Shown here in pieces: positions 3,120 through 49,712 of a DNA stretch of 62,196 nt. Position numbers and translations under genes: made by a program. Every line of letters starts with the position of its first letter. Positions within the stretch are counted from its first letter, which is position 1. This DNA comes from Candidatus Levybacteria bacterium RIFCSPLOWO2_12_FULL_39_17 (GTDB lineage: Bacteria; Patescibacteriota; Microgenomatia; Levybacterales; GWA1-39-11): assembly GCA_001782675.1 (NCBI GenBank), contig MFPJ01000035.1, positions 1-62,196 on the forward strand, in the 5' to 3' direction. The notes below the pieces were generated by a model. It worked only from the letters and a program-made list of their open reading frames with translations, searched no databases and was not told the DNA's origin.

Positions 3120-5663
3120 CTACGGAGATATTGTGGTGGCGCTGGCGACTTTGTCGGCCTTGTCAGAGAAACGCATTAAGATTACGCCTTGGGCGTTGCG
3201 GGACAATAATGGCGTTGAGGCAAGGGGAATCTTAACAACTTGTCCTTTCAGAGATGTAATTATAACTTCTGTTGCGTCGCTATCCAAAACTCCCGCAGAA
3301 ACAATATCTCCTGTTTTGTTATTTATATTCGCAACGCGTACTCCCTGTCCTCCTCGCCTTTGATTGCGAACTTCTGAAACTCTTGTTCTTTTTCCGAGGC
3401 CGTTTTGAGCAACAATTAAAAGAGTCGCGGTTTTATCTCCACCTGAGACAACATCCATTCCAATCAGCTTATCGTCTCCAATTAATTTTATTCCCCTAAC
3501 CCCCTGGCTGGAGCGCCCAGTTGATCTTACCTGCTCTTCAAGAAAGCTTATAATTTTCCCTTTTTTTGTAATTAAAACAAGGTCATCTTTTCCGCTTGAA
3601 AAATTCACCCACTGGAGGCTGTCTTTCTCTTCAAGTTTTATCGCAATTATTCCCCCCCGTCTGATATTTGTGAATTCCGAGAGTGCTGTTTTTTTCACTA
3701 CTCCTTTTTCCGTTGCCATTACAATATGTTTGAAATCTGCCTTTTTTTTAGAGCTGTAGGTCAAAATTGACTGAATTGTTTCGCCTTGAGTTATATCTAT
3801 AAGGTTTACTATTGCGGTACCTTTTGACACTCGACTTACCTCAGCCATCTCAAACACCCTTGTTTGGTAAACTTTTCCAAGATTTGTGAAAAATAAAATA
3901 AAGTCATGGGTCTCAGCATATAATATCTGATCTATAACATCCTCTTCTTTTGTTGTCATGCCCCGGATTCCCTTACCCCCTCTTGCCTGAGTCTTGAAAG
4001 AAGTCATGCCTTGTCTTTTAATATAACCTGTTTTGGTTATGGTAATCACCGTAGGTTCATTTTGAATAAGATCTTCTTCTGAGAATTCGTCTACCTTTGA
4101 TTTATAAACTCTTGTCCTTCTTGAATCCTCATATTTTTCCTTGATTTTTTTGAGCTCACCGGAAACCACGTCAAGCATTTTTTTGGGATCGGCAAGCAGG
4201 CTTACCAGATAATCAATTGTTTCCTTTACCATGTTCCATTCATCCTGAATTTTTTCGCGTTCAAGAGCGGCCAAACGGCGCAATTGCATATCAAGGATTG
4301 CCGTTGCTTGAATTTCTGAAAGCTTGAATCTCTTCATAAGATTAACTTTTGCTACATCAGCGCTTTCCGACTTTTTAATTGTTTCAATAACAGCATCGAT
4401 ATTATTAACCGCGATTAATAGGCCGTCTAAAATGTGAAGCCTTGTCTTTGCCTGTCTTAATTCAAATTCCGAGCGTCTTGTTACAACCCTAAACCTGTGG
4501 TTTATATACTCGTCAATTAAAACCTTAAGATTAAGGGTGCGCGGAATTCCGTCTACCAAAGCAACTATATTTGCCGGAAAAGTTGTCTGCAGGGCGGTTA
4601 ATTTAAAAAGGTTATTTAAAACTTTTCTTGGAGAAGAATCCCTTTTAAGTTCTACTACTACTCTTATTCCGTGTCTGTCCGATTCGTCCCTAAGGTCGGT
4701 TATTCCATCAAGTTTTTTCTCTTTTGCAAGCTCTGCAATTTTTGCAACTAAAGAAGCTTTATTGACTTGATAAGGTATCTCTCGAATTATTATTGCATTT
4801 TTTCCCTGCCCTATATCTTCAATCTCGGCAATTCCCCGGATCAAAATTCTTCCCCGCCCCATGCGATAGACATTTTTAATTTCCTCAATGTCATATATCG
4901 CCCCGCCTGTGGGGAAATCAGGACCCTTAATATGCTCAAGTAATTCATCAACAGTTACTTCCGATGAGAGTACAAAGGCCGGTTTTAGGGAATTCATTTC
5001 TTCATCAGTCAGCTCCTGCCCGTCTTTTCTTTCTTTCGCGTTTTCATTTTTGGAGTATGTTATCTTATCAATCGTGAGGGTGACAGCGTCAATTACTTCA
5101 CCTAAATTATGCGGAGGAATTTTTGTTGCCATACCCACAGCAATTCCCTCAGATCCCATTAGAAGCAGATTCGGAAGTTTGGAGGGCAAATAAACAGGCT
5201 CCTTAAGCGTTCCGTCAAAGTTTGGGGTTAATTCAACAGTCCCCTTATCAATATCAAAAAGCATTTCCATGGCAATTTGAGTCAATTTTGCTTCCGTATA
5301 CCTCATTGCTGCCGCAGAATCGCCATCCATGGAGCCGAAATTACCCTGCCCGTCAATTAAAGGATATCTCATGGAGAAGTCCTGGGCGAGACGCACAAGC
5401 GCGTCATAAATTGCCATGTCTCCATGGGGGTGGTATTTACCCATGGTCTCCCCAACAATTTTGGCGCTTTTTGCGTACTTAGCTGTTGGGTAAAGGCCCA
5501 TCTCGTACATTGCAAAAAGGATTCGTCTATGAACGGGTTTGAGGCCGTCTTTAACATCAGGCAAAGCACGCGCCACAATAACAGACATAGCGTAATCAAG
5601 ATACGCTTTTTTTGCCTCATCTGTTATATCTACATGTTCGAGTCTACCTATCTGGTTGTCCAT
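3120..5663 (-). CDS. gyrA: DNA gyrase subunit A
   Basis: 847 aa. Contains [28 protein letters not shown], the catalytic-Tyr region AAMRYTE, and C-terminal beta-pinwheel repeats. Confidence 0.97.
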
Positions 5664-5736: not shown

Positions 5737-7776
5737 CTACACTAAAAAGGACGCAATCAAAAGTGCTACAATGTTTGTTACTTTTATCATTGGATTAATA
5801 GCAGGACCTGCGGTGTCTTTGTAAGGATCCCCAACTGTATCACCGGTGACCGCTGCTTGGTGCGCAAAGCTTCCTTTTCCTCCAAGATTCCCCTCTTCTA
5901 TATACTTTTTCGTATTATCCCAAGAAGCCCCCCCTGTTGTCATAGAGATTGCGACAAACATACCCGTGATTATGCTTCCAACGAGCATTCCGCCAAGGGC
6001 TTGGGGTCCCAAGAGAAACCCGACTACAACCGGTGCCGCAACAGGGATGAGCGTTGGCAAAATCATTTGGCGGATTGCTGCTGCCGTTACAATATCAACT
6101 GCCCGTCCGTACTCAGGCTTGGCAGTTCCTTCCATTATGCCTTTTATTTCCTTAAATTGGCGTCTTACCTCCTTAACAACTGATACGGCCGTTTTCCCCA
6201 CAGCTTCCATGGCAAGAGCCCCGAAAAGATAAGGCAGTGCTCCGCCCACAAAGAGTCCGATCAGAATGTTTGGGTCTGATAAAGAAAATGTGAATTGACC
6301 ACCGCGCGCCTTTGAGAGCTCCTGAGTATAACTTGCAAAAAGAACCAAAGCAGCAAGACCGGCACTGGCGATAGCATAACCTTTTGTCACAGCCTTTGTA
6401 GTATTCCCAACTGCATCCAGGGAGTCGGTGATATTTCTAACTTTGGCGGGCATGTTTGTCATCTCAGCTATGCCTCCTGCATTGTCAGTAATTGGTCCAA
6501 AAGCATCAATCGCAACTATAATGCCTGTCAATGACAACATACTCATCGCAGCAACAGCCACCCCGTAGAGGCCCGCAAAATTATAAGCGAAAAAAATTGC
6601 AGCCGAAATAAGTATTATTGGCGCGAATGTTGACTTCATAGAAATCGCGAGTCCTGCGATTACATTTGTACCGTGACCCGTTGTTGAGGCATTTGCGATT
6701 GTTTTGACAGGGCTATAATTTTTGGAAGTGAAATATTCAGTTATTACAACCATACCCATAGTTACGACTATCCCAATGACGCAGCTATAGAAAATATTAA
6801 GTTGAGGGATATTCATAAGACCGTTTGGGAACAAAGCCTGCGTTGTGAAGTAAAACCCGATAAGCGCAAGAAGTGCTGTGACAGCCAATCCTTGATAAAG
6901 CGCGGCCATAATTTGTGTTCCCCGTATCCTTACAACGCTTACTCCTATAATGCTTGCGACAATCGCTACTGCTCCCAAAAGCAAAGGATATAAAAGCACC
7001 TGATTAATACTCGGGAATGTCAAATTTCCTAAAATCATAGCCGCAACAGCCGTTATCGCATAGGTTTCAAAAAGATCCGCTGCCATTCCTGCATCATCCC
7101 CAACGTTGTCCCCAACTAAATCCGCAATTACTCCAGGGTTTCGGGGGTCATCCTCTGGAATTCCCTTCTCAATCTTGCCTACCATATCTGTTCCTACGTC
7201 CGCGCCTTTTGTGTAGATTCCCCCACCTAAACGAGCAAACACAGAAATAAGCGAACTGCCAAAGCCAAGAGCAATTAAAGACCTTAAACTTTGTTCAAGC
7301 GGAAGACCTGTGCTTGATAAATAGTAAAAGAAGCCGCTGACAGAAAGTAGCGCGAGTCCCGCAACCATAAGACCTGTTACTGCCCCGCCTTTAAATGCGA
7401 TGCCAAATGCGGTAGATAGTCCGTGTCTTGCCGCCTGAGCGGTTCTAATGTTGCTTCGGATGGCCACATTCATACCAATAATTCCAGCCAGAGCCGAAAA
7501 TACTGCCCCTATTGCAAAGCCTGCGGCTGTATAAATATTAAAAACGTAAAATAAAATGGCGAAAATCAGAAGACCAATACCCGCTACTACCGTATATTGC
7601 CTTTTCAAATACGCTACGGCGCCTTCAGCGATCGCATCAGCTATTTCATTCATCTTTTCATCGCCGCGAGGGCTTTTGAAAACCTGAAAAGTTAGGAACA
7701 CCCCGTATAAAATTGAGGCGACTCCGGAAGCTATTGCCACTAAAAAAGAGTTTTCTAAAAGAAACGATAAATTCAT
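5737..7776 (-). CDS. hppA: membrane-bound H+/Na+-translocating pyrophosphatase
   Basis: 679-aa polytopic protein with [18 protein letters not shown] and [18 protein letters not shown] motifs. Confidence 0.95.
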
Positions 7777-10163: not shown

Positions 10164-11363
10164 TTATTGTATTTGTGATATAAGACTATAAATCGGAGTG
10201 ATAACGGACAAAATAAGGAAAGCAACAGACACACCCAGGACAATTATCAAAATCGGCTCAATGGCCGTAGTCAAAGTACTCACCTTAACATCCAAATCCC
10301 TTTCAAAATATTCCGAAATTTTAAGCAAACTTTCATCTATTCTACCGGTTGACTCTCCGACTCGAACCATTTGAACCAACATCGGAGGAAACATTTTTGC
10401 ATGCGCAAGGGCGTCTGAGAGTGAAACACCCTTTTCCACCAGGGAGCTTGTTGACACAATGGATTTTTTATACCAATAATTATTTGCAACATTTGAAGTT
10501 ATATTAAGACTCTCTATAATGGAGGCTCCCGAATTAATAAGAAGAGATAGAGTTCTTGTTATTTCATCCAATATGGATAAATTGATTATGCTTCCCAAGA
10601 CAGGAAGATTCAGCTTCATTTTGTCCAGAGCACGAATACCGGGATCTGTTTTTTTGAACCGGTTAAATCCTATAAAAGAAAAAATTAACAAAACTAATGC
10701 TGCCGGCCAAAATGTAGTAAATAATTTCGATATTCCAAGTACGATTTTAGTGCTGCCCGGCAGCTCAAGGTTTAAATTTTCATATAAACTTCCAAGCTGG
10801 GGAATAACAAAAATGTTCATAACCGCAATAACAATAACAACGCCGGAAATTACAATTGCCGGATAAAACATTGCGCCTTTTACTCTTTTTCTTAAGTCCT
10901 CCGATTTCTCCATGTTATCGGCGAGACGGACCAGGACCTTGTCAAGAAGTCCTCCTTTCTCAGCAGCTCTGATTAATGCTATGTAAACATCGGAAAAAAC
11001 ATCCTTATGTTGGCCCAATGTATCCGAGAGAGAGGTTCCTTCGGAAATCTGAGCAATAAGATCATTTACCAATACCTGCATGCTCGGTTTGTTTCTCTGT
11101 TGTTTTAGTATGTTCAGGGATTCAATCAGGGTTAATCCGGTTAGTATCATTGAGGAGAGCTGCCGTGTAAAAAGGACAATATCCGAGTTGTTTACTCGAC
11201 CAAATTGAAGGAAAGTAGTAGCTCTTCTTTCGACCTTTCTAATAGAAAGAGGGGTAATATTGCCGGAGCGCAAAAACTCAACAACCTCCTTTTCATTATT
11301 TGCTTCAAGTCTGCCCTTTTGCTTAAGCGAATCCTTGTCAATTCCCGTATAAATAAATTCCAT
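10164..11363 (-). CDS. pilC: type IV pilus platform protein (GspF/PilC family)
   Basis: 399 aa with two GspF-type repeats and three TM segments. Adjacent to the pilT and pilB ATPases. Confidence 0.9.
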   Translation of the reverse strand: MEFIYTGIDKDSLKQKGRLEANNEKEVVEFLRSGNITPLSIRKVERRATTFLQFGRVNNSDIVLFTRQLSSMILTGLTLIESLNILKQQRNKPSMQVLVNDLIAQISEGTSLSDTLGQHKDVFSDVYIALIRAAEKGGLLDKVLVRLADNMEKSEDLRKRVKGAMFYPAIVISGVVIVIAVMNIFVIPQLGSLYENLNLELPGSTKIVLGISKLFTTFWPAALVLLIFSFIGFNRFKKTDPGIRALDKMKLNLPVLGSIINLSILDEITRTLSLLINSGASIIESLNITSNVANNYWYKKSIVSTSSLVEKGVSLSDALAHAKMFPPMLVQMVRVGESTGRIDESLLKISEYFERDLDVKVSTLTTAIEPILIIVLGVSVAFLILSVITPIYSLISQIQ

Positions 11364-11370
11364 AAAAATA

Positions 11371-11400
11371 TTTATTATTTATTACTTATTATTTATTATT
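11371..11400. repeat. TTTATTA heptamer array (pilT-pilC spacer)
   Basis: Units tttatta tttatta cttatta tttatta. Nearly identical to the array at 12479-12510. Confidence 0.7.
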
Positions 11401-11403
11401 TCC

Positions 11404-12471
11404 CTACACAATCAGCTGATTGAACGCTTCCTGTCTTAATACATAACTTCTTGCAGTTTCAAGGGTAATTAGTCCTTGCTTGACAAGCGCGGCAAGAGAA
11501 GCCTCAAGGGAAATCATTCCAATATCCTGCGAGGTTTCAATTGTTGAGTCAATTAGATGGGTTTTACCTTCCCTTACATTGGACTTAATTGCATTGTTTG
11601 CGATCATTACTTCGCTGGCAACAATTCTGCCTCCGTCAATTTTAGGAATCAGTCTTTGGGAGATTATTCCCTGAAGAGATCCCGCGAGCTGTGCTTTTAT
11701 TTGATTCTGTTGCTTTTCCGGAAAAGAATCAATAATTCTGTCTATCGTTTGCGAAGCGGAATTCGTATGCAATGTGGAGAAAACCAGATGACCGGTTTCT
11801 GCCATGGTGATTGCCGAGGCAATGCTCTCGGGATCACGCATCTCACCAATTAAAACCACATCCGGATCTTCTCTTAAAGCGCTGCGTAAGGATTCCGCCC
11901 ACGAGAGGCTATCTATCCCTATTTCTCTCTGAGAGATAATGCCTTTTCCTTTCGGGTACACATATTCTATAGGATCCTCTATTGTAATAATATTTGCTGC
12001 CTGGTTCATATTGATCTCATTAACAATTGATGCTAAAGTTGTTGATTTTCCATGACCCGTTGGACCCGTGACGAGCACAAACCCTTGTTTGATTTTTGCA
12101 AAATTATGAGCAATCGGCGGAAGCCTCAGCTCTTCAATGGTTTTGACTTTCGGTGGAAGAAGTCTGAATGCGGCAGCTACTGTATTTCTTTGAAAATACA
12201 AATTAATTCTGAATCTTCCCTTCTCCCCGTAATCTCCTCCGCCATAACCGTAAGAGAAATCAAGACTCCTATTTGTTAAAAATAACTCTTTTTGCTCAGG
12301 GGTAAGAATTGAAAAAACAAGATTTTGAATTTCTTCATTGCTTAGGGGAGGATAGGCAGAGAGCGGGATTAATCGCCCGTCTACACGGATATTCGGAGCA
12401 ATGCCTGCAATCAAATGAAGATCCGAGGCATTAGTTGTTACGGTTTTTTCAAGTAATTCTGCTAAAATCAT
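11404..12471 (-). CDS. pilT: twitching-motility retraction ATPase
   Basis: 355 aa. Walker A GPTGHGKST, plus IITIEDPIEY and VLIGEMRD motifs typical of PilT. Confidence 0.9.
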   Translation of the reverse strand: MILAELLEKTVTTNASDLHLIAGIAPNIRVDGRLIPLSAYPPLSNEEIQNLVFSILTPEQKELFLTNRSLDFSYGYGGGDYGEKGRFRINLYFQRNTVAAAFRLLPPKVKTIEELRLPPIAHNFAKIKQGFVLVTGPTGHGKSTTLASIVNEINMNQAANIITIEDPIEYVYPKGKGIISQREIGIDSLSWAESLRSALREDPDVVLIGEMRDPESIASAITMAETGHLVFSTLHTNSASQTIDRIIDSFPEKQQNQIKAQLAGSLQGIISQRLIPKIDGGRIVASEVMIANNAIKSNVREGKTHLIDSTIETSQDIGMISLEASLAALVKQGLITLETARSYVLRQEAFNQLIV

Positions 12472-12478
12472 AAAAATA

Positions 12479-12510
12479 TTTATTATTTATTACTTATTGT
12501 TTATTATTTT
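12479..12510. repeat. TTTATTA heptamer array (pilB-pilT spacer)
   Basis: Units tttatta tttatta cttattg tttatta. Duplicate of the spacer at 11361-11403 with one mismatch. Confidence 0.7.
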
Positions 12511-12562
12511 TAGTTTCGAATCTTTAAAATAATCTATAATATACAATCTATAATCAATAACT

Positions 12563-14320
12563 CTATTCCTGTGCTACTCTAAGAATTTCATCGATTGTTG
12601 AAATTCCCCCTAAAACCTTAAGATATCCGTCCTGCTTCATGGTTATCATCCCCTCTGCTTTGGCCTGTTTTTCGATTGTAGACGCATCGGATTTTGTCAA
12701 AATTAAACCGGCAAGTGTTTGGGTAACCGGCAAAACCTCAAATATTCCGACTCTTCCGGAATAGCCCGAGTGCCCGCAGTAATCACATCCCTCTCCTTTA
12801 TAAAGCAAAATTTCCTCATTTTTGATGGTTATTAGATTTCCAAGAACTTTCCCAAGCTCCCCAACCAGTTCTTTAGCGGGTTTATATTGCTTTTTACAGT
12901 GGGTACATATTTTCCTGGCAATTCGCTGCCCTAGTATGGCATTCATAGTTGAAGCGAGCAGAAAATTTTCCGCCCCCATATCCAATAAACGAGGAAGCGC
13001 GCCTGAGGCGCTTGATGTATGAAGTGTTGAAAACACCAGATGGCCGGTCAACGAGGCTTGAATTGCCAACTCGGTAGTTTCTTTATCCCGAATCTCTCCG
13101 ACAAGGATAATATTGGGATCCTGTCTTAAAAAAGAACGAAGTCCTGTAGCAAATGTCAATCCGACATCAGGATTAATCTGGACTTGATTAGAGCCATGTA
13201 TTTGGTATTCTACAGGATCCTCAAGCGTTAATATATTTACGCGAGTTGTATTTAACTTAGATAAAACCGAATAAAGAGTTGTGGTTTTTCCGGATCCTGT
13301 GGGTCCGCAAACAATTATTATCCCGTGCGGGCGAAGTATGGATACTTCCAAATTTTTTAATGCGGTCCCGCCTAGTCCAAGTTCAGGTAAGGTGGGTACT
13401 CCGCCCGACTTCTTAAGAAGACGCATGACTATTTTTTCTCCAAAAATTACGGGAAGAGAACTTACGCGAAGGTCCACCTCTTCATCTCCAAACTTAAAGT
13501 TAAATCTTCCATCCTGCGGTATCCTGTGTTCGTCAATTTTCATATCCGATAAAATCTTAATTCTTGATATGACAGCATCTTTTACGGGCAGCGGAAGAGA
13601 AAGTCTTTCATATAGTATGCCGTCAATTCTATACCTTACCCTGACTCTGTCTTCCTGAGGCTCCAAATGAACATCCGAGGCTTTACTTTTAACGGCATAT
13701 TCAAGAATAGTCGACACTATTTTGGCAATTGGCGCTTCTTTTATGACCTGAGACAAGCTTTCTTTATCAAAGGTTTTAACTCCTGTCATTTCCTCTGTCT
13801 CTTTTAAAGCTGCCTTTACTTCACCAACCAACCCAAATGTATATTGGTTTTGGATCGCATTTTTAATTTCTCCGGGGATCCCCTGAAAAGAAGCAATATT
13901 CGCGTTTGTTTTCTGTTTAACAAAATTGACTGTTTCAAGATCAAGAGGGTCGGACATTGCCAAAGATAATATGTTCCTTTCCTTATCGAAGGAAAAAGGA
14001 ATCACTTTGTATTTTTCGGCAACTCCTTTTGGGACAAAACTTAATGCTTCAGGAGAAAAAGGAAGTGTCGCGACCGAAACGAAGGGAATTCCGATAAGCT
14101 TGGCCCGCGCCTCATAATAATCATCTTCTTTTACCAATTTTGAATCAAGTAATACCTTGTCTATTGGCTCACCTTTATTTAGAGAATCTGATTTGAGCAG
14201 GTTGTATTGGTCAAGGATTATTTTTTTTTCTTGGAGTAAAATTCCGGTGATATTATTCCCAACATTTAAAGGAGCGGAAGTGGTTGTTGCGGAATTATTA
14301 TTAGGCAGCTGTTCATCCAT
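12563..14320 (-). CDS. pilB: type IV pilus assembly ATPase (GspE/PilB family)
   Basis: 585 aa. Has an N-terminal GspII_E-like domain, Walker A GPTGSGKTT, and a tetra-Cys cluster (CTHC ... CDYC). Confidence 0.9.
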   Translation of the reverse strand: MDEQLPNNNSATTTSAPLNVGNNITGILLQEKKIILDQYNLLKSDSLNKGEPIDKVLLDSKLVKEDDYYEARAKLIGIPFVSVATLPFSPEALSFVPKGVAEKYKVIPFSFDKERNILSLAMSDPLDLETVNFVKQKTNANIASFQGIPGEIKNAIQNQYTFGLVGEVKAALKETEEMTGVKTFDKESLSQVIKEAPIAKIVSTILEYAVKSKASDVHLEPQEDRVRVRYRIDGILYERLSLPLPVKDAVISRIKILSDMKIDEHRIPQDGRFNFKFGDEEVDLRVSSLPVIFGEKIVMRLLKKSGGVPTLPELGLGGTALKNLEVSILRPHGIIIVCGPTGSGKTTTLYSVLSKLNTTRVNILTLEDPVEYQIHGSNQVQINPDVGLTFATGLRSFLRQDPNIILVGEIRDKETTELAIQASLTGHLVFSTLHTSSASGALPRLLDMGAENFLLASTMNAILGQRIARKICTHCKKQYKPAKELVGELGKVLGNLITIKNEEILLYKGEGCDYCGHSGYSGRVGIFEVLPVTQTLAGLILTKSDASTIEKQAKAEGMITMKQDGYLKVLGGISTIDEILRVAQE

Positions 14321-15058: not shown

Positions 15059-15634
15059 ATGGAATTATCTGCCCAAAGTATCAAGTCGAACCTCAGTAAA
15101 GGATTTACTCTCATTGAGCTTCTTGTAGTTATCGGTATTTTAGGAATTCTTGCGGCTGCTTTGGTTGCAACTATTGATCCATTTGAACAATTGAAGAAAG
15201 CCGATGATTCAAAGATTAAAAATATTGCTGTTGAATTCCAAACTGCAAATGTAAGATATTACACAACACACGGGGCATTTCCTTGGAGCGATGCGAATAA
15301 TCTTAATAATCCTAACTGTACAGGGAATAGTACATGGCCTATTCAGCTTGGGGCAACCGGCATGGTGGAATGTATTGATAACTCAAGCGGGAGCTTAACG
15401 GCAGAAGGAGAATTAAAAAAAGCCTTCGCTTCAAATCTGACTGACCTTAATAAAGTTTATGTAACATGGAGCTCAACCGATACAACCAATTTAATTGTTT
15501 GTTTCAGTCCTACATCAAAATCCCAAAAAGCGGCTCCTGAGACCAAATATAATAATGACGGAACAGACGCTCCTGCCGGTACATGTCCGGATTCAAGTGC
15601 TCCTGATGGAACCTGCTTCTGGTGCACAAGATAG
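15059..15634 (+). CDS. pilA: type IV pilin (probable major pilin)
   Basis: Prepilin cleavage/methylation motif KG|FTLIELLVVIGILGILAA. 191 aa with C-terminal Cys residues. Confidence 0.85.
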   Translation: MELSAQSIKSNLSKGFTLIELLVVIGILGILAAALVATIDPFEQLKKADDSKIKNIAVEFQTANVRYYTTHGAFPWSDANNLNNPNCTGNSTWPIQLGATGMVECIDNSSGSLTAEGELKKAFASNLTDLNKVYVTWSSTDTTNLIVCFSPTSKSQKAAPETKYNNDGTDAPAGTCPDSSAPDGTCFWCTR

Positions 15635-15682: not shown

Positions 15683-16459
15683 ATGTTTATACTATCTTTT
15701 ATCTTGTCGTTTTTATTCGGCGCGGCTGTCGGCAGTTTTCTAGCTGTATTGATTGACAGGTTGAGGAGGGGAGAAACTTTTATTTCAGGAAGATCGAAGT
15801 GCGAATCATGCAAGAGAACATTAACTCCTTCGGAACTTATTCCGATATTATCTTTTTTCCTCCAAAAAGGAAAATGCAAAGGCTGCAAGGCTAAAATACC
15901 TTCAAGGCTGATTATTGCTGAGATTTTAACAGGATTATCTTTTGCCGGACTATTTTTACTTTATTATTTTGGCGGGATAGGAATAATCGAGTTAATTTAT
16001 CTCATTTTAATTCTCTCTATTTCTATTGGGATTTTTATTAGCGATATCGCTTACGGAATAATTCCGGATGAACTTGTTGTTGCTTTTCTGAGCGTTTCTT
16101 TGCTCTACGGTTTTGTTTTTGTTCCATTTGATATGATCAACCATTTTCTCTCAGGTATAGTTTTAATGCTCCTTTTTCTTATTCTATTTTTGTCAACAAA
16201 GGGACGCGGCATGGGATTTGGTGATGTTAAGCTCTCATTTGCCCTCGGCATTTTCCTGGGATTCCCTAAAATAATAGTTTCTACATATATGGCATTCTTG
16301 ACAGGAGCTTTTGTCTCCGTAATACTGATTATGTGGGGCAAGAAACGCTTAAAGAAAGATACAATTCCTTTTGGTCCGTTTCTAATTTTCTCTGCTCTGG
16401 TTTCTTATTTCATTGGAGAAATATTAATCGCACAATTCCTAGACTTTTTCCAAAGATGA
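15683..16459 (+). CDS. pilD: prepilin peptidase (A24 family)
   Basis: 258 aa. N-terminal CxxC...CxxC (CESCKRTL ... CKGCKAKI), polytopic membrane domain, and a GMGFGDVKL aspartyl motif. Confidence 0.9.
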   Translation: MFILSFILSFLFGAAVGSFLAVLIDRLRRGETFISGRSKCESCKRTLTPSELIPILSFFLQKGKCKGCKAKIPSRLIIAEILTGLSFAGLFLLYYFGGIGIIELIYLILILSISIGIFISDIAYGIIPDELVVAFLSVSLLYGFVFVPFDMINHFLSGIVLMLLFLILFLSTKGRGMGFGDVKLSFALGIFLGFPKIIVSTYMAFLTGAFVSVILIMWGKKRLKKDTIPFGPFLIFSALVSYFIGEILIAQFLDFFQR

Positions 16460-17028
16460 AGCATCAACTTTCACCACTTGTTGACTCTCATTCCCGATTG
16501 AATCGTTGTCAGTTGTCAGTTGTCAGTTGTAAGTTGTCCTCAGATGGCTTTACCTTGATCGAGTTGGTTCTTGTTGTAGCCATAATGGGTATTCTTTCTG
16601 CTTTCTTCCTTACTGTTCTTAATCCCTTTGAGCAATTCAAGAAAGCAGCCGATTCTCAAAGGAAAAGCGACCTGGCTCAAGTTCAAAGAGCGCTTGAGGT
16701 ATATTATGAGGATTACTCCAGATATCCGGAGGCTTCTTCCGACAAAATTGCTCCCCAGGGTTCCGTTAAAAATTGGGGTAGTTCATGGGCTCCGTATATT
16801 AATCTATTACCAAAAGACTCAAGCACCCAAAAATTATACATTTATATGGTTTCTCCTGATGGGCAAAGTTATTGGCTTTATGCATCTTTGGACCGACAAG
16901 GAAAGGATCCACAAGCCTGTAATCAAGACGGCTCTGCTTGTTCAAATGTCCCTGCCGGTCTTGTCTGTGGAGCAAGTGCTTCACAAATTTGTAATTACGG
17001 TATTTCCAGCCCCAATGTTTCGCCATAG
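16456..17028 (+). CDS. type IV pilin-like protein
   Basis: The ATG at 16456 overlaps the pilD TGA (ATGA). Leader MKHQLSPLVDSHSRLNRCQLSVVSCKLSSDG precedes FTLIELVLVVAIMGIL. The track ORF 16333..17028 extends spuriously back into pilD. Confidence 0.8.
   Translation: MKHQLSPLVDSHSRLNRCQLSVVSCKLSSDGFTLIELVLVVAIMGILSAFFLTVLNPFEQFKKAADSQRKSDLAQVQRALEVYYEDYSRYPEASSDKIAPQGSVKNWGSSWAPYINLLPKDSSTQKLYIYMVSPDGQSYWLYASLDRQGKDPQACNQDGSACSNVPAGLVCGASASQICNYGISSPNVSP
16505..16539 (+). repeat. GTTGTCA heptamer tandem repeat (5 units) inside the pilin leader-coding region
   Basis: Units gttgtca x3, gttgtaa, gttgtcc. The unit length is not a multiple of 3. Confidence 0.85.
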
Positions 17029-17037
17029 GGCAAAACA

Positions 17038-17072
17038 ACAATTGACATTTAACAATTAACAGTTGACAGTGT
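17038..17072 (+). repeat. degenerate heptamer array in the pilin-pilin spacer
   Basis: Units acaattg acattta acaatta acagttg acagtgt. Confidence 0.6.
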
Positions 17073-17109
17073 TATTGTCAAAAAGAACAAAATGATCTAA
17101 ACTGGAATT

Positions 17110-17571
17110 ATGAAGAAACATTCAAAAAGTCAGGCGTCAGTTGTCAATTGTCAATTGTCCCGGAGGGGCTTTACCTTAATCGAGCTTCTGGTAGTTGTTT
17201 CCATCATTTCAATTCTCGCGTCCCTCTTAATAGCAAACTTTGTAGGGATAAGACAGAGAGGGCGAGATGCGCAAAGAAAATCGGATCTTCGCCAAGTCCA
17301 AACGGCGCTTGAATTATATAGAGCGGATAATGGAACCTATCCTGTCAGTCTATCTGCTTGCGGAAGTCCATTCACTTACAATTCAACAACTTATATGCAA
17401 AAATTGCCTTGCGATCCACTCCAGGAAACAGATTACACATTTTCATCCGACGGCATAATCTATACGATATATGCCTGTCTTGAAAATGACAATGATTCGG
17501 ACCGAGACAACACAACTCAACCGGGATGTACAGCGGTAACAAATAATTCGTTTACGGTAGTAAACCCCTAA
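17110..17571 (+). CDS. type IV pilin / GspG-like pseudopilin
   Basis: Leader MKKHSKSQASVVNCQLSRRG precedes FTLIELLVVVSIISILASLL. Also has RDAQRKSDLRQVQTALELY, typical of GspG-like pilins. Confidence 0.85.
   Translation: MKKHSKSQASVVNCQLSRRGFTLIELLVVVSIISILASLLIANFVGIRQRGRDAQRKSDLRQVQTALELYRADNGTYPVSLSACGSPFTYNSTTYMQKLPCDPLQETDYTFSSDGIIYTIYACLENDNDSDRDNTTQPGCTAVTNNSFTVVNP
17131..17158 (+). repeat. CAGTTGT/CAATTGT heptamer tandem repeat inside the pilin leader-coding region
   Basis: Units caggcgt cagttgt caattgt caattgt. Confidence 0.8.
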
Positions 17572-17573
17572 TA

Positions 17574-18116
17574 ATGTTAAATTTCAAATTTCCCTTCGAA
17601 AAATCTCAGGACAAACAAATTTCAAATTTCAAATTCGCGAATGGCTTTACATTGATTGAGCTTCTGGTTGTTTTCTCTTTGATTGCAGTGATTACCGGAA
17701 TTGGTTTGGTTTCATTGGTTTCTTACAGCAGAGCTCAAACGGTGAAGCAGGCAGCGGCAGAAGTTAAACAAATGATTGATTTGGCCAAGTTTAACTCTTT
17801 GTCTTTTGTTAAGCCTGAAAGCTGCACGGATGCGCTTGCGGGATATAAACTGGACTTTTGCGCAAACACCCTTTGTCAAAGGGCAAATGTAGATTATGAA
17901 ATAGTTGTTTTGTGTACAACTGATGACCCGGTAGTTCAATTCAGAAATTTTCCGAGCAATATTTCAACCAACAATATCGGATTAAGTGAGCCCTGTACTT
18001 CGATTACATTTAATATTAATAAGCAAACTCAGGGTATCCCTTGTGAAATAAATGTTGCCGGCTATAATAATCAAGTTAAATTATCGGTTGATTCGGTAGG
18101 ATATGTTACTTATTAA
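17574..18116 (+). CDS. type IV pilin-like protein
   Basis: Leader MLNFKFPFEKSQDKQISNFKFANG precedes FTLIELLVVFSLIAVITGI. Confidence 0.75.
   Translation: MLNFKFPFEKSQDKQISNFKFANGFTLIELLVVFSLIAVITGIGLVSLVSYSRAQTVKQAAAEVKQMIDLAKFNSLSFVKPESCTDALAGYKLDFCANTLCQRANVDYEIVVLCTTDDPVVQFRNFPSNISTNNIGLSEPCTSITFNINKQTQGIPCEINVAGYNNQVKLSVDSVGYVTY
17617..17637 (+). repeat. AAATTTC heptamer tandem repeat inside the pilin leader-coding region
   Basis: Units aaatttc aaatttc aaattcg. Two more aaatttc units lie at 17579-17592. Confidence 0.75.
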
Positions 18117-21551: not shown

Positions 21552-22193
21552 ATGGAATATCTAAAAAAATATTACATAAAGTACAAAAAACAGATATTGC
21601 CCCTGATATTTTTATCCTTGTCTTTTTTCCTTATTTTTAGAGTGATTCTTCCTCAAATTTCAGCGATTTCCGAGTCAAATCAATTAATTTCAAGTAAGAC
21701 TTCACAAATAGATACTTTACAAAAAACGCTTTCGGTTGTTTCCTCGCAGAATGATTCATTAACGGAGGAGCAGCTGGGCACCGCAACGAAAGCTCTTCCG
21801 GGAATAAAAGATATAGTAATAATTTTTGAGGCCTTGACATCCGCGGCGGGAGCCTCACGAACCGAGCTTCGTGAGTTTTCTCTTAAAGTGGGAGGAGTAT
21901 ATGGGAGAGCGGCAAAAGTGACAGGATTTGTAAAAGGAGTGCCGTCAATAAGCGTCACTACGAGGATATCAGGAGATCCTCTTGGTTTGATTAGGTTTTC
22001 AAAAGAAGCCCAGGAAAGATTGCCGCTTGCGGAAGTAAAAACAGTCGATACAAATAAGGATACCGGGACTTTCGAAATTGATTTTTTCTATAAACCTTAT
22101 GATATTACGGCAATTGCGAAATCGGACAAGGTTAGTCCCCTAACACAAGCAGACTTAAATCTTTTAAGTCAGCTAAAAGAGTGGGACAAATAA
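21552..22193 (+). CDS. pilO: PilO-like bitopic pilus alignment protein
   Basis: The internal Met (MEYLKKYY) just after the pilN stop is preferred over the track start at 21525. One TM helix plus a coiled coil. Assigned by position. Confidence 0.45.
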   Translation: MEYLKKYYIKYKKQILPLIFLSLSFFLIFRVILPQISAISESNQLISSKTSQIDTLQKTLSVVSSQNDSLTEEQLGTATKALPGIKDIVIIFEALTSAAGASRTELREFSLKVGGVYGRAAKVTGFVKGVPSISVTTRISGDPLGLIRFSKEAQERLPLAEVKTVDTNKDTGTFEIDFFYKPYDITAIAKSDKVSPLTQADLNLLSQLKEWDK

Positions 22194-22252
22194 ATATAAA
22201 AAATACAATATAAAATATTAAATATAAATAGAAAATATTTTATTTTTTATCT

Positions 22253-22948
22253 TTAATTTTTTATTTTCCTGAGGATGTCCGGTCTTCTTTTTTTTGTTAT
22301 TTCCTGGGCTTTTTTAATCCTGTATTCCTCTATTTTTTTAAAGTTCCCGGAAAGAAGTTCCTTTGGAACTGCCCGATTCTTATATTTTGGCGGTCTTGTA
22401 TAATGAGGATATTCAAGTATTCTAAGATTGTCTATTTTAGTGAAGGATTCAAAGCTTGTTGCTTCGGCTTTCTTTAGTACTCCCGGAATAAGCCTGGCAA
22501 TTGTATCTATCATTACCATCGCGGCGATCTCTCCCCCGGATAAAATATAATCTCCAATAGAGATTTCATAATCAACTAAGCTTCTTACCCGCTCATCTAC
22601 TCCCTCATAATGACCGCATACGAGAATTATATGGTCAAATTTTGAAAAAAACTCAGCCCTTTTTTGATGATAAGGTTCTCCTTTTGGGTCAAGAAGGATT
22701 GCTACCTCTTTTCCATGCTTTTGCCGAGCAGATTGTATTGCATGATCCAAAACATCCACCCGTAAAACCATTCCTGCTCCTCCGCCATATGGTCTATCGT
22801 CCACAACCTTATGCTTTCCTATTCCGAAATCCCGCAAGTTCAGGAGTTTTATCTTTAATTTATTTTCTTCCTGAGCCCTTTTTAAGATGGATACTGAAAA
22901 AACCTGTTCAAATACCTGAGGAAAAAGAGTAATAATGGTTATTTGCAT
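22253..22948 (-). CDS. trmD: tRNA (guanine37-N1)-methyltransferase
   Basis: 231 aa. Contains VDDRPYGGGAGMVL and GHYEGVDERV motifs and the SIGDYILSGGE trefoil-knot region. Confidence 0.92.
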   Translation of the reverse strand: MQITIITLFPQVFEQVFSVSILKRAQEENKLKIKLLNLRDFGIGKHKVVDDRPYGGGAGMVLRVDVLDHAIQSARQKHGKEVAILLDPKGEPYHQKRAEFFSKFDHIILVCGHYEGVDERVRSLVDYEISIGDYILSGGEIAAMVMIDTIARLIPGVLKKAEATSFESFTKIDNLRILEYPHYTRPPKYKNRAVPKELLSGNFKKIEEYRIKKAQEITKKRRPDILRKIKN

Positions 22949-24894: not shown

Positions 24895-26934
24895 TTAGTC
24901 TTTGGAGATTTTTTGGATAACAGTTTCTTCGATCTTCTTTTTAAGTTGGGGATATTTATCTAAATCCCAAAAGACATTCTCTGCTTCCTTTCTTGATGCG
25001 CTTATTATGGCAAAATCGGAAAACGAGGCAATTTTAAGTTCGGGAATTCCATGCTGCATTGTGCCAAACATCTCCCCCGGTCCCCTTAATTTTAAATCTG
25101 CTTCCGCAAGTTTTGCCCCCTCATTTAAGGTCTGCAGAAGCGTCAGCCGTTCCCTGGTTTTTTCAGAATTTGAACCCGAAAAAAGAAGACAAAAAGACTC
25201 TTTTTCTCCTCTCCCAACGCGTCCGCGAAGCTGATGAAGCTGGGCAAGACCAAACCGTTCCGCCGCTTCAATAACAATGATATCGGCAGTAGGTATATCA
25301 ATCCCCACTTCAATTACCGGAGTTGCTACCAGGACATTAATTTTCTCTTCCCGGAAATCTTTGATAACTTTATCTTTTTCTCCCGCCTTCATTTTTCCAT
25401 GCAAAAGCCCAAGTTTTAGGCCGGGAAAAACATCTTTTCTAAGCCGGTCGAATTCTTCTTTCGCCGCCGCGACCGTATTCAGAGTTTCGGAGGGTTCAAT
25501 AAATGGACAAACAATAAATACTTGACTTTTTTCTTTTTTTACTTTTTCCTGAATCCATCTGTATCCGTTTTCTCTTTTTTCTTCAGGGATAAGCCATGTT
25601 TTAATTTTTTTCCTTCCTTTTGGCATTTCGGAAAGTATAGACAAAGCTAAATCTGCGTAAATTGTTAAGAATATTGTTCGAGGAATGGGCGTTGCGGTCA
25701 TAGTCAAAAGATGAGGGTTTTTACCTTTTTCCCGAATTATTGCCCTCTGCTCTACTCCAAACCTTTGCTGTTCGTCAATTACTACCAGACCGAGCCTTTC
25801 GAATTTTACTTTACCGTGAATTAAGGCATGAGTGCCGATGGCAATATCGAAAGATTGATGATTTATGATTGATGATTTATGATTTTTTGTCGAACTGGTG
25901 AATAGTTCGACTTTGACTCTAAAGGGTTCGAGAATTGAAGTTATAGTTTCGAAATGTTGCTGAGCAAGTATTTCCGTCGGAGCCATCATGGCCGATTGAA
26001 ATCCATTAAGATAGGCTAAATACATTGCAATCGCGGCAACTATTGTTTTTCCTGAACCCACATCCCCCTCAAGAAGTCTGTTCATGGGAGTTTCTTTTTT
26101 TAGATCCTCACAAATTTCGGCAATTGCCTTTTTCTGTGATGTTGTAAGCTCAAAGGGAAGATTTTTTATTAGTTCATCAATTTTATTTCGATTTGAATCG
26201 ATATCAAAAGGAACGGCAATTTCCTCTGATTCCCATTCCTTTTTTCTTATTAAACTTGCCGTATGTTTAAGAAATAGTTCATCAAAAGCAAGTCTTGCGC
26301 GAGCCGCCTCCGCATCCTTTATGCTTTTTGGAAAATGAATATTCTTGATGGCATCGGAAATACCTATCAGTCTACGCTTTCTTATAATTTCCTGGGGCAA
26401 ATACTCCTTAATCTCAAGATCTTTTGAAAGCAAATTTTTTATTCTATTGCGAATCCATTTTGAGGTAAGTCCTCGAGTTTCGAAATAGATAGGGACGAGC
26501 CTACCTGTATGAAATGTGTCTGCAAGCTCATCCGGGAGAACTTCATAACCTCGCACCGCAAGAGTAGTTTTGCGACCAAACTTATCAGCCTTTCCGGCAG
26601 CGCTTAGGAAATCTCCCTTCTTTATGCTTTTCAAAATATAAGGCTGGTTAAAAAAAATGCAATCAATCTTGCCCGTTTCATCTTCAACCGTCAGTTTTTG
26701 TATTGATAAATGTTTTTTTGTGTATATATTTGTTGTATTAACAACCCTTCCTTTAATTGTTACAGTCTCGCCGGCTTGCAAAACCCCAATTTTGGAAACA
26801 ATAGAGGAATTTTCATATCTAAACGGGGTATAAAAAAGGAGATCCTGAACGCTTTCGATCTCAAGCCTCGATAACCTTTTCGCATTGAATTTAAATGTTG
26901 CCCCGAGCGACCTTAAGGGAGTTTTTAAATCCAT
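24895..26934 (-). CDS. recG: ATP-dependent DNA helicase RecG
   Basis: 679 aa. N-terminal OB wedge, helicase motifs GDVGSGKT, DEQQRFG and TATPIPRT, and QLRGRVGRG. Confidence 0.93.
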   Translation of the reverse strand: MDLKTPLRSLGATFKFNAKRLSRLEIESVQDLLFYTPFRYENSSIVSKIGVLQAGETVTIKGRVVNTTNIYTKKHLSIQKLTVEDETGKIDCIFFNQPYILKSIKKGDFLSAAGKADKFGRKTTLAVRGYEVLPDELADTFHTGRLVPIYFETRGLTSKWIRNRIKNLLSKDLEIKEYLPQEIIRKRRLIGISDAIKNIHFPKSIKDAEAARARLAFDELFLKHTASLIRKKEWESEEIAVPFDIDSNRNKIDELIKNLPFELTTSQKKAIAEICEDLKKETPMNRLLEGDVGSGKTIVAAIAMYLAYLNGFQSAMMAPTEILAQQHFETITSILEPFRVKVELFTSSTKNHKSSIINHQSFDIAIGTHALIHGKVKFERLGLVVIDEQQRFGVEQRAIIREKGKNPHLLTMTATPIPRTIFLTIYADLALSILSEMPKGRKKIKTWLIPEEKRENGYRWIQEKVKKEKSQVFIVCPFIEPSETLNTVAAAKEEFDRLRKDVFPGLKLGLLHGKMKAGEKDKVIKDFREEKINVLVATPVIEVGIDIPTADIIVIEAAERFGLAQLHQLRGRVGRGEKESFCLLFSGSNSEKTRERLTLLQTLNEGAKLAEADLKLRGPGEMFGTMQHGIPELKIASFSDFAIISASRKEAENVFWDLDKYPQLKKKIEETVIQKISKD
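25853..25887. repeat. GATTGAT/GATTTAT heptamer array inside recG
   Basis: Units gattgat gatttat gattgat gatttat gattttt. Encodes KNHKSSIINHQS between helicase motifs I and II. Confidence 0.75.
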
Positions 26935-27130: not shown

Positions 27131-28486
27131 TCATTGCAAAGATTTTTGTCTGAGTCTTTCCACATCCCGCCACCCAATATCTGTTCTAAATCTTACATTT
27201 TCTCCGTCCATTCCTTCTACAATTTCTAAGACAACGCTAAGTTTTTCTCTTGCTTCAAGAACATCTATTTCTTCTGTCATAATATAAAACAATCTTCCGC
27301 CTGCGATATAATGTTTGCTCTCTTCCATTTTGATCCCAGCACCATAAATATTTATTCCATCAAGTCTTCTCAATTCTGGCAAGCTTTTAACCTCTTTATT
27401 TCGCACTGCTTTGTAGCTTCGTGGATATCCTCTTGATGCAACTGCGACGACTACCCTAACCTTGCCATCATTTCTAATGTCAAGTCCGCTTATATCTCCG
27501 TCTACTATTGCATCTCCCAACTCCAGTAAGTCGATATTTAATCCCGGGAGAATTACCTGGGCTTCAGGGTCGCCAAGTCTTGCATTCCATTCAAGTAAGA
27601 ATTGTTTTAAGCGATCGTTTCCTATCGGTATAGCCATACCACCATGGAATATCCAGCCCCTATAGGGATTCCCTTCTTCTCTTTTCGCTGCTAGCATTTT
27701 ACTAATATTTGATTCGGTCCCTTCCTGCAAGACAACATCTCGCATTAGTAAGGGATTGGAAACAGCTCCCATTCCTCCTGTCATGTCCCCTTTATCGCCG
27801 TCCTTTTCATGTTTGTGATCCTGAGCGCTTCCAACAACGATAAAATTTGTACCGTCTGAAACCGCAAACGTTGAGGACTCTTCACCCACAAGAGCTTTTT
27901 CTATAAGAAATCTTTCGGAAGCCATTGGGTGTTCTTTCTTTAATCTTTTGATTGCATCCAGGGCTTCCTGTTTATTACTCGCGCGAATCGAACCTTTCCC
28001 CTCGGCAAGACCAGTAGCTTTCACGAACATCTTTCGCTCAGGCATTTTATCAAGCCACCCTTCTGCTTCTCTTATAGTTGAAAACGCAACCCAGTCAGGT
28101 TGAGGAATTTCTGCCGTGTCCCCCAATCTTCTTGCATATTCCTTATCCCACTCTATTCTTCCCGCAACAGAAGTTGGTCCAATAACTTTTATTCCATGAA
28201 GAAAGGCGGCATCACTCACTCCTGCCTGAACAGCATTGTCCTGACATATATCGATGTGAGTCACACCGTTTTCCTTGGAAAGAGCTATTATTTGATCAAC
28301 ATCCGAAGTTTTTATACCTGGAAAGAGCGCTACTCGGTCACTTCTTTCTTCTGCCATCATGTCATTTCCTGGGAAAACAAGAACTTTTTCTACGTGGGGA
28401 CTTTTTAAGTAAGCCTCAACTATGACAGAGCCTCTTCCGCCACCGTCAGTTACTGCAACTACTGCCTTTCTTTCTTGCGTTGCCAT
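27131..28486 (-). CDS. purD: phosphoribosylamine--glycine ligase (ATP-grasp)
   Basis: 451 aa. The N-terminus VAVTDGGGRGSVIVEAYLKSPHVEKVLVFPGND parallels PurD (GxGGREHA ... PGN). ATP-grasp core FVKATGLAEGKG. Confidence 0.8.
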   Translation of the reverse strand: MATQERKAVVAVTDGGGRGSVIVEAYLKSPHVEKVLVFPGNDMMAEERSDRVALFPGIKTSDVDQIIALSKENGVTHIDICQDNAVQAGVSDAAFLHGIKVIGPTSVAGRIEWDKEYARRLGDTAEIPQPDWVAFSTIREAEGWLDKMPERKMFVKATGLAEGKGSIRASNKQEALDAIKRLKKEHPMASERFLIEKALVGEESSTFAVSDGTNFIVVGSAQDHKHEKDGDKGDMTGGMGAVSNPLLMRDVVLQEGTESNISKMLAAKREEGNPYRGWIFHGGMAIPIGNDRLKQFLLEWNARLGDPEAQVILPGLNIDLLELGDAIVDGDISGLDIRNDGKVRVVVAVASRGYPRSYKAVRNKEVKSLPELRRLDGINIYGAGIKMEESKHYIAGGRLFYIMTEEIDVLEAREKLSVVLEIVEGMDGENVRFRTDIGWRDVERLRQKSLQ

Positions 28487-35761: not shown

Positions 35762-35796
35762 TTAATTTTTAATTTTTAATTTAAAATTTTTAATCA
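35762..35796. repeat. TTAATTT heptamer array (pheS-pheT spacer)
   Basis: Units ttaattt x3, aaaattt, ttaatca. Confidence 0.7.
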
Positions 35797-38148: not shown

Positions 38149-38160
38149 ATTAATTCTAGT

Positions 38161-38202
38161 TAAAAATTAAAAATTAAAAGTTAAAAATTACAATTTAAAA
38201 TT
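38161..38202. repeat. TAAAAAT heptamer array (infC-rpmI spacer)
   Basis: Units taaaaat taaaaat taaaagt taaaaat tacaatt taaaatt. The 7-nt periodicity continues weakly to about 38256. Confidence 0.7.
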
Positions 38203-38256
38203 CAAAGTACTTAAAATTTAAACTGCAACTTTTAACTCCTCACTTTAAACTTTTAA

Positions 38257-47867: not shown

Positions 47868-47949
47868 GGGCTTGTGCTGAAATTGGTATACAGGCATGCT
47901 TGAGGTGCATGTGCCGCAAGGCGTGGAGGTTCGAGTCCTCTCAAGCCCA
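47868..47949 (+). tRNA. tRNA-Leu (anticodon GAG)
   Basis: 82-nt class II tRNA. Acceptor GGGCTTG/CAAGCCC, anticodon stem-loop catgc-TTGAGGT-gcatg, G37, A73, 13-nt variable arm. Confidence 0.85.
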
Positions 47950-47957
47950 CACCTCAT

Positions 47958-49525
<1,568 letters not shown>

Positions 49526-49607
49526 TTGTTTATCATAAAAGTTCTTTTAAACAAGCGAAGCGCGTTAGCTTCATTTCCAAAATTTTTGCGTCTTTTACTG
49601 CTTTTTA

Positions 49608-49712
49608 CGGCTGCTTTCTCCGATTTTCAAAAAGGGCTTTGATACGCTCTTTTCGGAATTTGTCCCCCATGCAAATTCCGCAATTCCGCCTTCAAAATTC
49701 CTGAGTGTGGAC
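49608..49712. repeat. IR-A right arm (105 bp, perfect)
   Basis: Reverse complement of 48026-48130. Overlaps the IR-B left arm by the 7-bp core tgtggac (49706-49712). Confidence 0.95.

Follow-up and report, generated by a model that had tools for sequence, protein, structure and literature searches.

Heptanucleotide arrays in three adjacent prepilin leaders

The window analysed here is the whole 62,196-nucleotide (nt) contig MFPJ01000035.1 of Candidatus Levybacteria bacterium RIFCSPLOWO2_12_FULL_39_17, a member of the Candidate Phyla Radiation (CPR, Patescibacteria), and it carries a type IV pilus locus in which three consecutive pilin genes, numbered pilins 2, 3 and 4, contain tandem arrays of 7-nt units within the sequence coding for the prepilin leader. 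As summarized in Table 1, the dedicated prepilin peptidase gene pilD and the assembly genes pilB, pilC, pilM and a pilT-like ATPase gene all lie in this pilin locus, which is completed by more pilin-like genes. Pfam N_methyl scored above its cut-off in pilins 1 to 4, as did T2SSG in pilins 2 and 3, and the cleavage motif G/FTLIEL (the slash marking the cleavage point) could be read in the pilin sequences, which identifies type IV pilins with class III signal peptides. The TGA stop of pilD and the ATG of pilin 2 overlap (ATGA). Named homologues were from Levybacteria or Patescibacteria, and a 10.8-kb stretch of the Rifle aquifer scaffold ANAN16-1_SAMN03842436 scaffold_103 is identical to part of the window. 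An Rfam scan returned tRNAs only, leaving the pilin region without any RNA family match.

Table 1. Pilus genes, heptanucleotide arrays and other features of the window (aa, amino acids; TRF, Tandem Repeats Finder)
Feature	Position	Strand	Remarks
GTTGTCA-type array, 4.3 copies	81-110	minus	In frame in alpha/beta-hydrolase gene, encodes SVVSSQLSIV; TRF
pilC (T2SSF)	10164-11363	minus	
ATAAATA array (gene strand), 4.7 copies	11369-11401	minus	Immediately upstream of pilC ATG; TRF
pilT-like ATPase gene	11404-12471	minus	
Near-identical heptamer array	12477-12516	minus	Immediately upstream of pilT-like ATPase ATG; TRF
pilB	12563-14320	minus	
Pilin 1	15059-15634	+	191 aa, 15-aa leader; Pfam N_methyl; array-free, the internal contrast
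pilD, prepilin peptidase, peptidase A24	15683-16459	+	Pfam A24_N_bact and Peptidase_A24
Pilin 2, GspG-like type IV pilin	16456-17028	+	190 aa from ATG, 31-aa leader; Gly(-1) codon 16546-16548; N_methyl and T2SSG
Pilin 2 array	16505-16539	+	GTTGTCA x3 perfect, then GTTGTAA, GTTGTCC; TRF score 61, 4.9 copies, 92% matches
In-frame TTG, last repeat unit of pilin 2	16534-16536	+	As start would give M-SSDG leader; more in-frame TTGs at 16513 and 16498
Imperfect period-7 array, AACAATT x3.6	17037-17061	+	Pilin 2-pilin 3 spacer; TRF; many TTGACA/TTGTCA motifs
Promoter-like TTGTCA-17 nt-TAAACT	17075-17103	+	Ends 6 nt before pilin 3 ATG; 9/12 positions matched, alone not significant
Pilin 3	17110-17571	+	153 aa, 20-aa leader; Gly(-1) codon 17167-17169; N_methyl and T2SSG
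Pilin 3 array	17133-17160	+	GGCGTCA/GTTGTCA/ATTGTCA/ATTGTCC, i.e. (G/A)TTGTCA x3-4; TRF 17136-17159, 3.4 copies
In-frame TTG, last repeat unit of pilin 3	17155-17157	+	As start would give M-SRRG leader
Pilin 4	17574-18116	+	180 aa, 24-aa leader; Gly(-1) codon 17643-17645; N_methyl
Pilin 4 array a	17579-17592	+	AAATTTC x2, directly 3' of ATG
Pilin 4 array b	17617-17637	+	AAATTTC x2 and AAATTCG; TRF 17616-17635, 100% matches
Heptamer array	22192-22267		Between convergent genes, end of pilus operon
Heptamer array in recG	25853-25885		In frame, encodes KNHKSSIINHQS
Heptamer array	35762-35794		Directly upstream of pheT ATG
Heptamer array	38160-38258		Downstream of gene near rplT
Diversity-generating retroelement	49992-52679	minus	
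Retroelement reverse transcriptase gene	49992-50990	minus	Pfam RVT_1
Retroelement template repeat	51451-51579	minus	129 nt
Retroelement variable repeat	51868-51996	minus	3' end of gene 51864-52679

Arrays of 7-nt units in these three genes had been noted in a sequence-only reading of the window, and all of them were confirmed at the positions given there. The array described for pilin 3 stood as well, although the first of its listed units is only a weak match and the unit RTTGTCA, common to pilins 2 and 3, had been missed, as had its in-frame occurrence in the hydrolase gene at 81-110. The arrays end 6 to 7 nt before the Gly(-1) codon (5 to 7 nt as given for pilin 4), and the cleavage point lies 9 to 10 nt beyond the array ends, which is the low end of the 10 to 20 nt previously proposed. 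Counted from the ATGs, the leaders of 31, 20 and 24 aa are not the short, basic ones of type IVa pilins (about 5 to 7 aa); in length the leaders of pilins 2 to 4 are type IVb-like, but here this length is made by the repeat arrays. The AAATTTC unit of pilin 4 encodes KFQISNF leaders in other Levybacteria pilins.

Period-7 repeats are in excess throughout the window: it holds 5 exact period-7 arrays versus 0.34 expected, and period 7 makes up 21 of its 59 TRF rows. The RTTGTCA dimer gave 13 matches (1.79 expected), a count reached in 0 of 100 shuffles, and the AAATTTC dimer likewise gave 13 (5.84 expected), reached in 1 of 100. Apart from the AT-richness of the genome, nothing favours chance or an assembly artefact as the origin of the arrays; the shuffle statistics reject chance, the same arrays recur in dozens of independent assemblies and the pattern spans the whole lineage, and we regard such an origin as hardly credible. 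The earlier argument from three adjacent genes with the same pattern was weakened, since the pattern reflects a heptamer habit of the genome and the lineage at large and not a special locus. One further candidate, a -1 frameshift slippery site, was rejected as a coincidence: AAATTTC fits the pattern XXXYYYZ and the other units do not.

Distribution and turnover of leader arrays in CPR pilin genes

A total of 160 loci around PilD relatives (numbered L below) were taken from metagenomes and GTDB species genomes, all prepilin cleavage motifs in them were crossed with TRF arrays, and 84 CPR-like loci (576 kb) were compared with 77 non-CPR loci (Bacillota, Actinomycetota and others). In the Joint Genome Institute (JGI) metagenome contigs, the PilD scan found relatives at no more than 51% identity and no copy of this species, and these loci served the family-wide analysis. 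The density of period-7 arrays in the CPR-like loci was 1.92/kb in the 90 nt before Gly(-1), 0.52/kb in intergenic DNA and 0.083/kb in coding DNA, while the 77 non-CPR loci had zero period-7 arrays in pilin leaders and 0.07/kb in intergenic DNA. Between -60 and +90 of the start codon, a period-7 array was present in 54 of 256 pilin open reading frames (ORFs) versus 13 among 413 ORFs of other kinds (odds ratio 8.2, p=1.5e-13; 84 CPR loci). TRF reported 163 period-7 arrays in the CPR loci versus 19.6 expected from shuffles (period 8, 67 versus 21), and since the period-7 count is so far above that of the shuffles, the excess is not a TRF artefact.

Leader arrays were found in named genomes of Levyibacteriota, Microgenomates, Gottesmanbacteria, Blackburnbacteria, Colwellbacteria and Parcubacteria. 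They generally comprise 3 to 7 units (mode about 4 to 5, maximum 14) and their placement is stereotyped, beginning 3 to 10 nt past the ATG and stopping 4 to 10 nt before the Gly codon. Among the protein matches of pilin 2, the leaders MKFQISNFKFQIS, NLKSQISNLKS and KFKIQNSKFKI are translated AAATTTC, AATCTCA and AAATTCA arrays. Arrays between the start codon and Gly(-1) specifically characterise CPR pilin genes across the lineage and are present in about one in five of those near pilD. Literature searches on heptanucleotide or tandem repeats, phase variation, pilin and CPR/Patescibacteria did not return a description of this pattern or any paper on phase variation in CPR, and heptamer arrays in CPR prepilin leaders apparently have not been described before; as far as we know and could find, no simple-sequence repeat inside a prepilin leader has been reported. 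Many metagenome-assembled genomes in the census (L086-L088, L091, L094-L098 and others) are titled 'uncultured Gammaproteobacteria' or 'Pseudomonadales', with a PilD 40 to 50% identical to the Levybacteria protein and a GC content of 34 to 41%; these titles are probably placeholders or wrong labels.

Whole-unit slippage occurs in nature in this gene family. Loci L169 and L173, which carry a pilin 2 homologue of another CPR species, differ over 3197 nt by 0 mismatches and one 7-nt gap, the loss in L173 of one CAAAAAT unit right behind the ATG. This loss puts the ATG out of frame, so that its product ends as MQKSKTKQKITH-stop; in its place, a GTG located 21 nt upstream enters the frame. The longer allele is on five contigs and the shorter on one, and their source samples have neighbouring accession numbers. 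In the sister strain L002, pilin 3 has exactly 21 nt (three units) fewer with upstream sequence that is 100% identical, pilin 2 has no array, and the spacer array between the two genes has one extra CCAATTGA unit. One-unit differences were also found between two L012 paralogues and between the L035 and L156 orthologues. In locus pairs of at least 97% identity, gaps lay only in or directly beside a pilin-leader array, these being the unit loss of L173 and a segment replacement 5' of the pilin 2 array in L004 (JGI 3300025322). Here, at positions 304-407, corresponding to window 16456-16546, an unrelated 45 nt takes the place of the 32 nt that separate the array from the pilin 2 ATG, and no match for it was found elsewhere in the window; a TGA closes the ATG frame and the array-internal TTGs alone stay in frame.

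Orthologous arrays also evolve in concert. The orthologues in L009 and L015 have CAATTTT x5 and CAAAGTT x5, respectively, each unit showing the same two substitutions, and their flanks share 85% identity; in orthologous minor pilins of 7 genomes the array sits at the same place in all, with differing units, while the window orthologue (18594) has none. Elsewhere the leader-plus-array module is near-identical (L012 4376-4490 versus 6595-6700; L035 4990-5065 versus L156 5945-6025) and the flanking coding sequence is about 13 to 20% diverged, suggesting that the module has undergone gene conversion or is under selection at the nucleotide level. A separate observation concerns L175 and L176, from neighbouring wells: around 3750-5500, their first pilins are identical and the downstream minor-pilin genes strongly diverged (342 mismatches, many indels), and this region looks like a hypervariable pilin cassette.

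Translation of the arrays and their possible role

The frame from ATG to Gly(-1) is open in pilins 2, 3 and 4 and contains the arrays. Among 40 non-redundant CPR arrays ending no more than 30 nt before Gly(-1), an ATG open through the array lies no more than 24 nt upstream in 18 cases, and every one of these 18 ATGs shares the frame of the mature pilin, against one third expected by chance. Stop triplets are scarcer on the coding strand, where 19 of the 40 arrays contain one in any frame, than on the opposite strand (37 of 40), and at L107 and L023 a clear Shine-Dalgarno sequence places the start codon upstream of the array. Pilin 4 has no second canonical in-frame start codon, the MKH N-terminus of pilin 2 is kept in the orthologues P0002 and P0006, and the L002 orthologue of pilin 2 has a 12-aa leader and no alternative start. 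The arrays are translated, and the proposal that they lie inside unusually long translated leaders was upheld by the lack of another start in pilin 4, the ATGA overlap, the conserved MKH and the 18 of 18 ATGs in frame. The predicted leader-derived peptides, if the arrays are translated, are HQLSPLVDSHSR (upstream of the TTG) and HSKSQASVVNCQLSR.

In pilins 2 and 3, but not in pilin 4, the arrays could instead be 5' untranslated region (UTR), with the true start at a TTG in the last unit and the copy number altering no more than UTR length or promoter spacing. In-frame TTGs that would give 5-aa leaders had been pointed out before; they exist (16534 and 17155), but within the last unit and not after the repeat. 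The National Center for Biotechnology Information (NCBI) annotation of the contig begins pilin 2 at TTG 16534 (P0121, 164 aa), the near-identical variant L004 has its ATG frame closed by TGA with only array-internal TTGs in frame, and in some CPR loci the array lies 5' of the start codon or contains the ATG itself (GAATTAT arrays). GTTGTCA contains TTG, and therefore an array of at least 3 units offers a TTG in every frame. Against this, the TTGs have no Shine-Dalgarno sequence, and the genome rarely uses one, preferring an ATG near a -10 box or coupled to a preceding stop; the overlap with pilD and the conserved MKH and MKKHSKSQ N-termini favour the ATG; the ATG-to-Gly frame is open in all three genes and adjacent ATGs are in frame family-wide; and neither pilin 4 nor L002 pilin 2 has an alternative start of this kind. 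We consider the UTR explanation improbable.

Signals upstream of the start codons were less telling. A Shine-Dalgarno sequence is recognisable at only about 4 of 52 window genes and is therefore uninformative for the choice between ATG and TTG. The layout of a promoter followed by a near ATG (leaderless type) seen before pilin 3 is also found at pilin 1 and many other window genes; a sigma-70 promoter scan of the window gave 14 sites versus 11.1 expected, which is not significant, and supplies positional context only. Many window ATGs lie 6 to 12 nt past a TATAAT-like box (e.g., 14360, 5737-7776, 27131-28486, 29828 and 46855-47802), and this proximity suggests leaderless or near-leaderless transcripts.

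With translation from the ATG as the reading we retain, the arrays are slippage-prone heptanucleotide microsatellites in translated prepilin leaders (class III signal peptides), that is, repeats that the ORF carries after its start codon and ahead of the part coding for the functional protein. As 7 is not a multiple of 3, a change of one or two units breaks the frame, and in simulations the gain or loss of 1 or 2 units left pilins 2, 3 and 4 with ATG-initiated products of 20-69 aa, as had been foreseen for one-unit changes. The best mechanistic reading is a low-rate, per-gene on/off or high/low switch, for which we hold a slightly less than even degree of belief. Strand slippage would create and turn over the leader arrays, and the gain or loss of one or two units would uncouple the ATG from the mature pilin and silence it; in pilins 2 and 3 after slippage, the array-internal TTGs would be the sole remaining possible starts. 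Steps of three units would change only the length of a leader that PilD removes anyway. Each pilin gene would thereby possess its own low-frequency, reversible switch, and pilins 2 to 4 of the window would all be ON. That such switching is both frequent and reversible enough to matter, and that it is selected for, is inferred; frequent adaptive phase variation is unproven.

Several observations weigh against the switch. The window arrays are short tracts of 3-5 units, 2-4 of them perfect, and slippage rates are therefore probably low; high rates typically need tracts of 8-10 units or more, and the long, pure tract of phase variation of the neuO type (see below) is not what the window arrays present. 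About 37-39 of the 40 array-bearing CPR pilins are ON, those that look OFF being L173, L004 and possibly L086, so that ON and OFF alleles are not both common. Proteins identical to pilins 2, 3 and 4 are encoded on 48, 54 and 45 contigs of this population, respectively, with no count variation at the consensus level, and pilin 4 variants with point mutations retain the identical leader. Heptamer arrays also occur beside or inside housekeeping genes (pheT, recG and the hydrolase) and upstream of pilC and pilT, and therefore a general mutational bias exists. Finally, every unit of pilins 2 and 3 contains TTG, so an in-frame start codon survives any slippage. As for the slipped-strand phase variation originally proposed, the unit-wise slippage is real (L173 and L002), but frequent adaptive switching did not find support, given the short tracts, the 45-54 identical contigs and the mostly ON alleles. 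The comparison of orthologous loci that had been suggested as a check gave a similarly divided answer, with differences of three units in L002 and of one unit between L169 and L173, but none in the window population. Two other candidate cases were discarded: P0134 and P0124, examined as frameshift (OFF) alleles, are both contig-edge fragments, and P0158 and P0157 have identical DNA and differ only in the called start codon.

The main rival is that the arrays are a neutral by-product, in which a CPR bias makes and homogenises 7-nt repeats in weakly constrained DNA, frameshifts are purged and there is no switch. The leader would tolerate arrays because PilD cuts it off and it needs little beyond a start codon, some charge and Gly(-1). 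Period 7 indeed dominates the tandem repeats throughout the window and the CPR loci, with an intergenic density of 0.52/kb in CPR versus 0.07/kb in non-CPR loci, arrays lie upstream of or in frame within pheT, recG and the hydrolase gene, almost every allele is ON, about 50 assemblies agree in their counts and the tracts are short. Against this reading stand a leader density 3.7 times the intergenic and 23 times the coding one, the odds ratio of 8.2 against the 5' ends of other genes, the stereotyped placement and the persistence of arrays in orthologues while the unit sequence changes. Likewise, a 5-unit array inside an ORF must arise via frameshifted states or 3-unit jumps, and OFF-type alleles persist in nature (L173 and L004). 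We judge the neutral origin quite possible, if on balance doubtful. Selection might also act on a property other than mutability, such as an unstructured A/U-rich initiation region on leaderless mRNA or mRNA devoid of a Shine-Dalgarno sequence, leader length or charge, or a shared cis-acting binding module. Most units are A/T-rich and code for Lys, Asn, Gln or Ser, direct repeats cannot self-pair, Shine-Dalgarno sequences are largely absent from the genome, and conservation of the leader-plus-array modules of the L012 paralogues and of L035/L156 far exceeds that of the coding sequence around them. Such a property would not explain why the period is 7 and not 3, 6 or 9, many functional orthologues are array-free (including pilin 1 and L002 pilin 2), and the units differ widely between genes (GTTGTCA, CTACTGC and AAATTCA); we therefore think this explanation unlikely. 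A single DNA- or RNA-binding regulator, or a single peptide property, was rejected as unlikely, because the units differ between genes.

The per-gene switch could be extended to the lineage. In CPR bacteria (at least Microgenomates/Levybacteria and some Parcubacteria), the leader microsatellites may form a switchboard through which the 5-8 pilin paralogues of a locus would be switched independently, driven by heptamer-specific slippage and homogenisation; this extension is rather unlikely. If true, near-clonal populations of episymbionts would present pili of mixed composition when attaching to hosts, taking up DNA or evading phages, and this would be the first contingency-locus system described in CPR and the first located in a signal peptide of class III. 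A central role in host attachment and DNA uptake by the ultra-small, mostly uncultured CPR bacteria is ascribed to type IV pili, and the statistically robust, lineage-wide link between a frameshift-capable microsatellite and the prepilin leader offers a concrete hypothesis for the regulation of their many pilin paralogues. The arrays also reveal that repeat dynamics in CPR genomes are biased towards heptamers and that arrays evolve in concert, and they affect gene calling, as the same pilin DNA was called both 164 aa and 190 aa and the annotation of CPR pilin starts is inconsistent. Even if neutral, the arrays would still be useful as hypervariable strain markers.

Other features of the window and comparison with known repeat systems

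Among the arrays of the window outside the pilin leaders (Table 1), those upstream of pilC and the pilT-like gene may alter promoter or UTR spacing, and the array-bearing segments 11364-11403 and 12472-12516 are near-identical to each other (about 40 nt each). The hydrolase array sits just before the GHSLGG nucleophile elbow, and seven of its residues are an insertion versus the solved homologue 8b4u. A perfect 33-nt tandem repeat (40259-40362, x3.2, 100% identity, TRF score 208) lies in a 144-aa ORF without a Pfam match, beside a class II aminoacyl-tRNA synthetase gene. In the diversity-generating retroelement, the template and variable repeats differ solely at template adenines; an (AG)18 repeat, (CT)18 on the gene strand, occupies 51041-51076 between the template repeat and the reverse transcriptase gene, about 50 nt upstream of the start codon of the latter. 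In the region 47868-49689, tRNA genes adjoin a gene for a large serine recombinase (47990-49525), with flanking inverted GCGGAATT/AATTCCGC doublets at 48049-48064 and 49674-49689, and this region may mark one end of an integrated element in which the retroelement also resides.

Of the known systems, the repeat of neuO, the capsule O-acetyltransferase gene of Escherichia coli K1, is the closest functional analogue of the CPR pilin arrays. The heptanucleotide AAGACTC is repeated in the 5' coding region of neuO, which is ON only if the unit number is divisible by 3 (PMC13001214). Its unit number ranges from 3 to 53 and is commonly near 20, the gene is OFF in 65.6% of genomes, and heterogeneity within a culture is measurable (PMC13001214). 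In both systems a 7-nt unit is translated in the 5' part of an ORF and the frame depends on the unit number modulo 3. The pilin arrays, unlike neuO, have 3-7 units and are nearly always ON in consensus sequences; they also lie in a signal peptide that is cleaved off, and occur in many paralogues and orthologues with varied units.

Heptanucleotide repeats are tied to surface adhesin genes in Haemophilus influenzae as well, where (ATCTTTC)n with 10-28 or more units lies between P2 and P1 in the HMW1A and HMW2A promoters (PMC8262952). There the unit number tunes expression from non-coding DNA at the transcriptional level, whereas the arrays of pilins 2 to 4 are located inside the ORF and not in a promoter. 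Judged by their position, the arrays upstream of pilC and pilT (11369-11401 and 12477-12516) and of the L035 and L156 ATGs appear closer to the HMW type.

Heterocystous cyanobacteria have a genome-wide excess of heptamers, the short tandemly repeated repetitive (STRR) sequences, which form several unit families (CCCCAGT, TTGGTCA and CAACAGT) and are mostly non-coding; we do not know of STRRs being concentrated in prepilin leaders or translated. Rotations and reverse complements of GTTGTCA and AAATTTC had no match among these STRR consensus sequences. The cyanobacterial and CPR repeats are alike in being a lineage-specific heptamer excess, and differ in phylum and unit sequences. In Neisseria, type IV pili vary through homopolymer slippage in pilC and through gene conversion between pilE and silent pilS cassettes. 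Neisseria thus uses homopolymer tracts in an accessory gene together with recombination, unlike the CPR arrays, but in both cases pilus components would be switched or diversified by hypermutable DNA.

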